From assembly GCF_003334315.1 (NCBI RefSeq), contig NZ_QOWR01000016.1: a DNA stretch of 64,000 nt, one strand, 5' to 3'. Source of the DNA: Escherichia coli (GTDB lineage Bacteria; Pseudomonadota; Gammaproteobacteria; Enterobacterales; Enterobacteriaceae). This document shows, one piece after another, positions 10,523 to 10,742 of the stretch (the first letter of the stretch is position 1; the number at the start of each line of letters is the position of its first letter). A model generated the notes under the pieces. The model ran no database searches. It was not told the DNA's origin and saw only the letters and a list, made by a program, of their open reading frames with translations. The position numbers and the translations under genes were made by a program.

Positions 10523-10742
10523 ATCGTGAACCTCCCCCAGGCTCTGCGGGAACCCCACTTCCGAACCGCTGCGCACGGGCACAGAAAGAGCGTGGCGACG
10601 GGGTTTGCGTGTCATACGCGCGCCTCGCATTCGCCCCCTTGTTGTCCTTTTCGCATCGGTTAATACGGTGAAGAGGGGATCTCAATTACTGCATAAATAT
10701 GATGAGCAGGCTGCTCATCCAGAAAGCTTCCAGCGGATTTCC

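Follow-up and report, generated by a model that had tools for sequence, protein, structure and literature searches.

Structured 5' untranslated regions (5' UTRs), which precede a single gene and carry a covarying stem between conserved flanks, are known for greA and rimP, and Rfam families have been established for both (RF01769 and RF01770, respectively). Here, an element of the same architecture is described in the leader of gltB, the gene of the Fe-S enzyme glutamate synthase. It lies on the minus strand of a stretch of 64,000 nucleotides of the Escherichia coli contig NZ_QOWR01000016.1 (assembly GCF_003334315.1), which is called the window in the following. The element is centered on a perfect 9-bp inverted repeat at 10701-10719, in the RNA the stem-loop P1, and on two nearly invariant flanking sequences termed Box 1 and Box 2. 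In contrast to the greA and rimP leaders, the gltB leader matches no Rfam family. A search with the Rfam 15 covariance models against the E. coli and Citrobacter gltB leaders revealed nothing relevant down to E = 10, and the greA, rimP and S15 leaders in this window are recognized by Rfam. No description of the gltB leader element was found in the searched literature (8 million papers) or in Rfam; the work on the gltBDF untranslated region from 1991 (Velazquez et al.) may mention a leader structure. The kind of element is familiar, and its gltB member appears to be uncurated.

Several further systems are related to this locus. The small RNA (sRNA) RyhB mediates iron sparing together with Hfq on sodB and sdhC, and gltB1 of Vibrio cholerae has been reported as a RyhB target as well (cited in PMC5511505). 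In Gram-positive bacteria, IsrR and FsrA are functional RyhB analogues that act on glutamate synthase mRNAs. gltB of E. coli likewise encodes an Fe-S enzyme, whose translation is lowered upon RyhB induction in ribosome profiling data, and P1 adjoins an AU-rich stretch, which is a typical context of an Hfq site. In contrast to these systems, the candidate site of gltB is located about 200 nt upstream of the start codon and not at the ribosome-binding site, and the predicted pairing is statistically weak. Among the leaders controlled by CsrA (glgC type as well as gltB of V. alginolyticus), direct binding of CsrA to gltB RNA is known from a related gammaproteobacterium. The gltB leaders of Vibrio and Photobacterium display GGA in hairpin loops and Box 1 carries an invariant GGA, but the enterobacterial P1 loop is devoid of it. 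The trp and pyrBI attenuators share with gltB a hairpin followed by a T-rich run. However, the U tract of gltB is interrupted and sequence-specific, and the gltB leader has neither a conserved alternative pairing nor a conserved leader peptide nor a mapped 3' end there. The operators mapped for gltBDF belong to the same control region but are DNA sites from -361 to -52 (Paul et al., 2007), whereas P1 is present downstream of +1 and behaves as RNA. Finally, the glutamine riboswitch (glnA RNA motif) and the single-hairpin riboswitches show the same combination of a covarying stem above an invariant internal loop and a short helix, in the former case also at a nitrogen-assimilation gene. The gltB element differs from these riboswitches by its AU-rich loops, by the missing Rfam match and by a lower helix, P0, which is unproven.

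The inverted repeat reads GATGAGCAG-g-CTGCTCATC and consists of two 9-nt arms, which are 100% complementary and separated by a 1-nt spacer, exactly as described in the first-pass annotation of this DNA. Since a loop of one nucleotide is impossible in RNA, the transcript is predicted to form 8 pairs and a triloop rather than 9 pairs. Within this stem-loop (P1, 10701..10719 (-), +20..+38) the 5' arm comprises 10719-10712, the loop GCC 10711-10709 and the 3' arm 10708-10701, and the fold has a predicted energy of -11.1 kcal/mol (z = -2.6 in comparison to shuffled sequences). The 5' arm contains the stretch GAUGAGCA. The chance expectation was estimated from block shuffles of the 64-kb window, which gave 0.93 perfect inverted repeats with 9-bp arms per 64 kb for spacers of up to 3 nt and 2.7 for spacers of 0-10 nt. 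The real window contains 11 such places, and most of them look like terminator hairpins on the basis of their GC-rich stems and the flanking A and T runs. Since about one comparable palindrome per 64 kb is expected by chance, the sequence alone provides little evidence, and the claim is carried by the comparative data.

For this comparison, gltB loci were gathered by a protein-anchored scan with one genome per species, resulting in 80 loci. The leader from about -12 to +75 is almost identical in Enterobacteriaceae and Erwiniaceae, and the sequences upstream of the promoter diverge; the same block is recognizable in Yersiniaceae, Pectobacteriaceae, Hafnia and Photorhabdus. Within this conserved block, the 19-nt palindrome is the variable part, and it varies in pairs, as seen from the arm variants GAUGGGC/GCCCAUC, GAUGAACA/UGUUCAUC, GGUGAGCAG/CUGCUCACC, GAUGAGUG/CACUCAUC and GACGAGU/ACUCGUC. 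In an alignment of 37 sequences from Enterobacteriaceae, Erwiniaceae, Yersiniaceae and Pectobacteriaceae (A1), 91.6% of the P1 cells are paired, compared to 24-55% if the 3' partner is slid. Six of the eight P1 pairs are changed on both sides, giving 53 doubly changed cells, a result that was reached by none of 500 shuffles, and RNAalifold recovers the same helix. A covariance model found 52 instances, all located directly upstream of gltB. Among them are weak ones from Hafnia, Photorhabdus and Rosenbergiella, and a further one derives from Photobacterium alginatilyticum and has an unrelated stem sequence. In the alignment of these 52 instances (A3), all eight P1 pairs show double changes. Throughout 102 gltB loci, 45 distinct stem sequences were observed, every one of them folding as a hairpin, with a loop of 3 to 7 nt and only two of the eight stem positions mostly fixed.

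The deviations from Watson-Crick pairing are informative as well. Read on the gltB sense strand, the non-Watson-Crick P1 cells of the 102 loci comprise 34 G.U and a single A.C, which identifies the sense-strand RNA of gltB as the pairing molecule. Due to this asymmetry, a symmetric protein that recognizes duplex DNA is excluded, and an antisense transcript is excluded as well. The first-pass annotation had proposed either an operator or an RNA leader hairpin, and had stated that a palindrome not conserved in close relatives would speak against a function. Of these two proposals the hairpin is strongly supported by the compensatory changes and the G.U-only pattern, and the operator is not supported, as its half-site is free to vary and none of the mapped Lrp, IHF, Crp or ArgR sites coincides with it; the conservation in other enterics, where the helix is kept and its sequence varies, favors a function. 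P1 is therefore almost certainly an RNA hairpin under selection.

The element appears as a single copy per genome in E. coli, and second copies in other gene contexts were found neither in E. coli nor in a metagenome pattern scan. In the latter, matches with a 49-nt spacing (plus one variant with a 63-nt insertion) and a foldable stem are gltB leaders having the same promoter. One 49-nt match (L194) as well as all matches with other spacings were discarded as chance hits, mostly in coding DNA, and the 45-nt class resembles by eye a conserved open reading frame (ORF) of a phage single-strand-binding protein. Within E. coli, the region 10450-11250 is 100% identical to strain CP53 and is present in 5417 of 5426 complete genomes. 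Here, an 81-nt core is at least 99% identical in 5376 of the 5417 genomes, and the surrounding 801 nt reach this similarity in just 3208.

The position of P1 within the transcript follows from the promoter. The sigma-70 promoter of gltBDF (10743..10771 (-)), which is missed by a simple consensus scan, consists of the -35 element TTGACC (10771-10766), a 17-bp spacer and the -10 element TAAGTT (10748-10743), and the promoter elements ATTTGACC and CGATAAGTTGG are kept across Enterobacterales. The transcription start site is derived from the literature and is not a new measurement. The Crp site AATTTTGCGCTAAAGCACATTT, identified by a mutagenic primer, spans -76..-55 (Paul et al., 2007) and was placed at 10814-10793 of the window, and this numbering together with the primer sequences of the same study sets +1 at about A10738 (+/-2). 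With the RefSeq start codon of gltB (minus strand), an AUG at 10522-10520 (+217), the 5' UTR comprises 216 nt. The palindrome is located downstream of TAAGTT and upstream of the start codon, which agrees with its initial placement between the -10 element and the gltB start. An older annotated in-frame ATG of gltB at 10613-10615 (-), which would extend the protein by 31 codons (MTRKPRR...), is not kept in other genera, where it is absent or the frame is shifted by indels. This supports the RefSeq start and the 216-nt UTR. The gene yhcC (mnmL) is oriented divergently from gltB on the plus strand.

The flanks of P1 behave oppositely to its stem. Box 1, GCUGGAAGC, at 10726..10734 (-) (+5..+13), is the nearly invariant, single-stranded 5' flank and contains a GGA. 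Its core CUGGAAG (C12-G18 of the alignment) is invariant in the 37 sequences of all four families, and Box 1 is also found in Photobacterium alginatilyticum. In Photorhabdus, Rosenbergiella, Edwardsiella and Photobacterium indicum, Box 1 deviates from this sequence. On the 3' side, the nearly invariant Box 2, AUAUUUAUGCAGUAAU, at 10685..10700 (-) (+39..+54), contains the sequence AUG-CAG-UAA. Here, UUAUGCAGU (T49-T57 of the alignment) is invariant in A1 throughout the four families, and UAUGCAGU is retained in the gltB leaders of Photobacterium and Aeromonas. Between both boxes a 4-bp helix P0 (10688..10734 (-)) may form from GCUG at 10734-10731 and CAGU at 10691-10688, which would close an invariant internal loop beneath P1. 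P0 is predicted by RNAalifold and is part of the minimum-free-energy fold of E. coli, and 99.5% of its cells are paired in 47 distinct sequences, with one-sided changes only (G.U<->A-U). In a whole-leader RNAalifold of 26 sequences, covariation supports P1 alone; P0, a mid-leader stem and a hairpin at the Shine-Dalgarno (SD) sequence are based on invariant positions or one-sided changes. The P0 helix is plausible but unproven.

A helix which is kept without its sequence and is framed by two almost invariant boxes leads us to interpret P1 as a scaffold, belonging to a cis-acting element by which glutamate synthase is controlled post-transcriptionally. To this reading we assign a probability of about 0.5. 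P1 is somewhat more probably a regulatory element than a passive structure. Mechanistically, P1 would fix the geometry of Box 1 and Box 2 and present both for recognition, and the boxes would close the short helix P0 (GCUG:CAGU) beneath it. A trans-acting factor might then bind to Box 1. Candidates are RyhB, which would act jointly with Hfq to spare iron at an Fe-S enzyme, and CsrA, which would use the GGA. The freed Box 2 could pair with the region of the start codon, which is ACUG-AUAUG in most genera, or could expose an AU-rich site for RNase E or Hfq; in both cases, the outcome would be a lower translation or stability of the gltB mRNA. Box 2 (CAUAU...CAGU) and the start region are compatible in 96.6% of the cells of 26 leaders. 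Since these columns are almost without variation, this pairing shows compatibility and is not a proof. In silico, blocking +4..+34, which opens P1 and occupies Box 1, reduces the accessibility that is predicted for the AUG, from 0.50 to 0.32, which is a weak effect. Such a switch between Box 1, Box 2 and the start codon is speculative and rather doubtful. An extended version, in which P0, the internal loop and P1 would constitute the sensor domain of an undescribed three-part riboregulator of glutamate synthase, is considered unlikely. In its ON state, Box 2 would pair with Box 1 (GCUG), and in its OFF state with the near-identical sequence at the start codon (ACUG-AUAUG), P1 would act as a clamp, and the choice would be set by whatever binds to Box 1 or the loop, be it an sRNA, CsrA, another protein or a metabolite.

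That gltB is under post-transcriptional control is known from independent published data. For RyhB, 10 min of expression halved the ribosome occupancy of gltB (log2 1.06, P = 0.014) and left the RNA unchanged (0.23), and gltB is contained as a novel, unvalidated RyhB target in the ribosome profiling (Ribo-seq) listing (Wang, 2015). Box 1 is complementary to nt 53-61 of RyhB (GCUUCCAGU) via 8 Watson-Crick pairs and one G.U. Here, CUGGAAGC pairs with GCUUCCAG, which belongs to the invariant core of the Rfam family RF00057 (upper-case in the consensus); the identity of the RyhB query sequence was confirmed by Rfam. The best RyhB site within the leader is +4..+34, with -25.3 kcal/mol, which falls into the top 0.18% of the 35-nt windows in the 64 kb. 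An RNAduplex calculation of the full leader against full RyhB returned long-loop duplexes no better than those of shuffles and was replaced by contiguous-helix and windowed scans. Taken as the partner of the element, RyhB is a tentative candidate and rather unlikely to be the right one.

For CsrA, a high-affinity binding to gltB RNA has been described in V. alginolyticus, where gltBD is upregulated more than 10-fold on RNA level and more than 70-fold on protein level in a csrA mutant. In E. coli, gltB mRNA co-purified with CsrA (Edwards, 2011), and in a csrA mutant its half-life was 4.7 min instead of 7.9 min. The invariant GGA of Box 1 is located at a helix-loop junction, and a second GGA within the SD sequence is about 190 nt away; CsrA sites are usually paired at a distance of 10-63 nt, one of them at the SD sequence. 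P1 loops of Photobacterium carry a GGA. Vibrionaceae gltB leaders contain hairpins with GGA in the loop, CUGUC-UGGAA-GACAG, GGCGAUC-AGGGA-GAUUGCC and GACGAUC-AGGAA-GAUUGUC, just upstream of a GGGAGA SD sequence (at about 1450-1480 in the Vibrio loci L068, L074 and L076 and about 1425-1445 in the Photobacterium loci L062 and L073). By sequence, they resemble the CsrA sites to be expected from the electrophoretic mobility shift assay of V. alginolyticus. As the partner of the enterobacterial element, CsrA is unlikely.

A third sRNA, GcvB, touches the leader outside of the element. Hybrids obtained by Hfq crosslinking, ligation and sequencing of hybrids (Hfq-CLASH) contain the leader segment 10628..10657 (-) (+82..+111) with the fragment GATGCGAAAAGGACAACAAGGGGGCGAATG; five gcvB-gltB hybrids are listed with -17.8 kcal/mol, involving the 3' seed region of GcvB (supplement of Iosub et al., 2020). 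This suggests that gltB is a GcvB target, as yet unvalidated. For GlnZ and OmrA/B, no evidence of a direct action on the gltB leader was found.

A number of points weigh against the reading of P1 as the scaffold of a control element, or against parts of it. The RyhB match of 8 Watson-Crick pairs is statistically weak (P about 0.055 for one sRNA), and SraG, an unrelated sRNA from the window, has a nearly equal energy on +1..+19 (-17.3 vs. -17.5). No RyhB-gltB chimera is present in the Hfq-CLASH tables; the cultures are not known to have been iron-limited. For CsrA, crosslinking and immunoprecipitation with sequencing (CLIP-seq) in E. coli displayed no peak at the gltB leader, neither the RNA nor the ribosome footprints of gltB were significantly affected by csrA in this organism, and none of the enterobacterial P1 loops contains a GGA. 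Concerning the consequences of binding, the predicted SD accessibility is unchanged (0.26-0.28) if Box 1 alone or the GcvB site is constrained as bound. The E. coli start region is CACGAUAUG instead of CACUGAUAUG, which leaves six of the nine proposed Box 2 pairs, and P0 is broken in Photobacterium indicum. Furthermore, P0 and the helix of Box 2 with the start codon are located on almost invariant columns with one double change in all, and both structures were derived from the consensus itself. Lastly, a constraint on DNA level could account for part of the invariance seen in the flanks.

The explanation that competes best is a passive or autonomous mRNA element, in which the hairpin and its AU-rich flank would set the decay or processing of gltBDF, as an entry site or barrier for RNase E or by protecting a processed 5' end, or would prevent misfolding of the leader. 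Sites of RNase E and Hfq consist of a stem-loop plus an AU-rich single strand, and a stem of free sequence followed by AUAUUUAU resembles them. With 216 nt the leader is long, and a high degree of structure is predicted for it, a 3' end from decay or processing has been mapped at +149, and the half-life of gltB is altered in the csrA mutant. However, about 45 flanking nucleotides, which are invariant at single-base resolution in four families, are left unexplained. The hairpin is also 19 nt away from the 5' end, which is too far for a terminal stem of the ompA type, whose protection is exerted at the 5' terminus. We regard a purely passive role as possible, albeit on the unlikely side.

Less well fits an intrinsic terminator, attenuator or pause, by which P1 followed by AUAUUUAU would halt the RNA polymerase near +45 and be relieved conditionally. 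A simple and loose scan is positive, with an 8-bp stem containing 4 G-C pairs, a loop of 3 and 5 T within the next 8 bases, and it flags no other position of the leader on the gltB strand. The U tract is, however, broken from its first base on (AUAU...), and A and U within it are equally invariant, which a terminator does not need for its A residues. In Photorhabdus, AACC is inserted between the hairpin and AUAAUUAUG, and Yersinia uses a different stem register. A conserved antiterminator pairing with the stem arms is absent and is not possible, since the arms vary freely next to fixed neighbors. In MG1655, no Term-seq 3' end is listed within 3354500-3354599, nor is one present from +1 to +90, and the only 3' end of the leader is located at +149, although RNAs of about 45 nt may escape the library preparation, and no Rho termination region is listed there. 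Termination at P1 is therefore quite unlikely.

A translated leader ORF is improbable. Two reading frames come into question, a 10-codon ORF starting within the stem (AUG 10718, MSSLLIIFMQ*) and the AUG-CAG-UAA of Box 2 (10694-10686), whose translation the hairpin would modulate, for example to sense glutamine via the single Gln codon. It is suggestive that a Gln codon precedes the gene of an enzyme which consumes glutamine. In A1, the AUG and the CAG of the mini-ORF do not vary, and they are followed by a stop codon in most genera, mostly UAA, with UAG in Tatumella and UGA in Photorhabdus. Furthermore, AUG-CAG-UAA is present in Photobacterium alginatilyticum, and GGAAG precedes the AUG of the stem by 8-9 nt. 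Nevertheless, 14 of the 37 sequences have ACG in place of the start codon of the 10-codon ORF, and its codons follow the pairing partner with non-synonymous changes. No SD sequence precedes the mini-ORF. Erwinia, Siccibacter and Pantoea IMH (MQLLRFPL*) have lost its stop, Hafnia displays AUG-UAG, and Rosenbergiella and Edwardsiella lack the AUG. RNA pairing explains the UGA and UAG variants equally well.

Last and least credible is an operator, where a dimeric transcription factor bound to the palindrome would block elongation or initiation at gltBp: its perfect dyad occupies a classical roadblock position and gltBDF has many regulators, of which Nac, Fnr and GadE are without a mapped site, but the half-site is not conserved (45 variants in 102 loci), the changes are correlated across the dyad with G.U (34) and not A.C (1), an asymmetry impossible for the recognition of double-stranded DNA, the loop length ranges between 3 and 7 nt, fragments extending to +51, +161 and +246 had no reported protection downstream of +1, and the ArgR, Lrp, IHF and Crp sites are all mapped upstream of -50 (Paul et al., 2007).

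Some other resemblances were considered and rejected. A hammerhead-like motif (CUGGAUGAG vs. CUGAUGAG) varies among the leaders and is negative in Rfam. A reading similar to a T-box, with CAG as specifier and UGGA as partner of the acceptor, has the wrong order of elements, and the discriminator base of tRNA-Gln presumably does not fit either. Measured against what we take to be their consensus sequences, a Nac site (ATA-N9-TAA in Box 2), a sigma-70-dependent pause and a his-type pause gained nothing in support.

Downstream of the element, the leader has further candidate features. The block of about 75 nt of ultra-conserved sequence ends with the C-rich, anti-SD-like tract AUCCCCUCUUC (AUUCCCUCU in other genera) at 10670..10680 (-). 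Judged by its sequence, it would be complementary to a conserved AGAGGG further down the leader; no covariation between both was found. A long stem-loop GGGGGCGA...CCCCGUCGCC is predicted at 10590..10638 (-), and the older gltB ATG lies in its apex. A few nucleotides past this stem-loop, a Term-seq 3' end has been mapped at 10590 (-), which is +149 or MG1655 3354657 (Adams et al., 2021). It may represent a decay intermediate or premature termination, and no Rho termination region is listed at this 3' end in the supplements of the same study. The translation initiation region (10520..10544 (-)) consists of the hairpin GAGCCUGGGGGAGGUUC, which holds the SD sequence, followed by the AUG. This hairpin (10528-10544, GAGCCU-GGGG(G)-AGGUUC) is predicted and invariant in 26 leaders, and the predicted probability of the SD sequence to be unpaired is about 0.27 under all modeled conditions. 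As a whole, the gltB leader folds no better than shuffled sequences (z = -0.17).

In this part of the leader, E. coli departs from the other genera. All other Enterobacterales leaders that were examined contain another small hairpin behind the CCCUCU tract, CAAGUCCUCAAACUUG, whose loop displays an anti-SD-like CCUC. This hairpin is absent from E. coli and its closest relatives, and about 13-15 nt are missing in E. coli (10660-10672 (-); compare L002-L040 at about 1345-1365). The anti-SD-like tract (10675-10679) is UUCCCUCU in other genera and UCCCCUCU in E. coli, the mid-leader tract (10634-10638) AGAGGG and AGGGGG, and the SD sequence (10531-10538) UGGGGAGG and UGGGGGAGG, respectively. Furthermore, E. 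coli lost the U of the ACUG ahead of the start codon. These joint departures at elements with G or C runs may reflect a correlated evolution of competing SD/anti-SD pairings or a coincidence within a single lineage.

Other observations concern the surrounding DNA. Upstream of the promoter, a perfect inverted repeat ACAGTCA-N5-TGACTGT is present at 10881-10899 (about -144..-162), near or within the promoter-proximal Lrp-binding region. A Term-seq 3' end at about 11106 (-) (MG1655 3354141), located on the same strand as gltB and about 370 nt upstream of gltBp, falls into the unnamed EcoCyc small-RNA gene G0-10702, which adjoins the ArgR-binding region. G0-10702 probably corresponds to 'yhcC-gltB', an Hfq-dependent sRNA from the study of Raghavan et al. 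(2011). The longest perfect dyad of the window is a 22-bp palindrome, TGATGAAGATTAATCTTCATCA, at 17000-17021, with 11-bp arms and no spacer.

A large part of nitrogen assimilation runs via glutamate synthase, and work on its operon has been centered on transcription, with Lrp, IHF, Crp and ArgR as its factors. A leader segment of about 75 nt, which is near-invariant across four families and contains a covarying stem, points to strong selection on the mRNA itself, and the element may help to explain the regulation of gltBD beyond the known transcription factors. The links of RyhB, CsrA and GcvB to gltB each originate only from genome-wide screens or from another genus. Here, the nineteen bases and the two boxes provide a handle on how these signals reach gltBD. 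If P1 is only a stability hairpin, it is an ordinary element, whose worth does not exceed an Rfam entry. If the switch is real, it would tie the translation of glutamate synthase (GOGAT) to the iron, carbon or nitrogen status in Enterobacterales.

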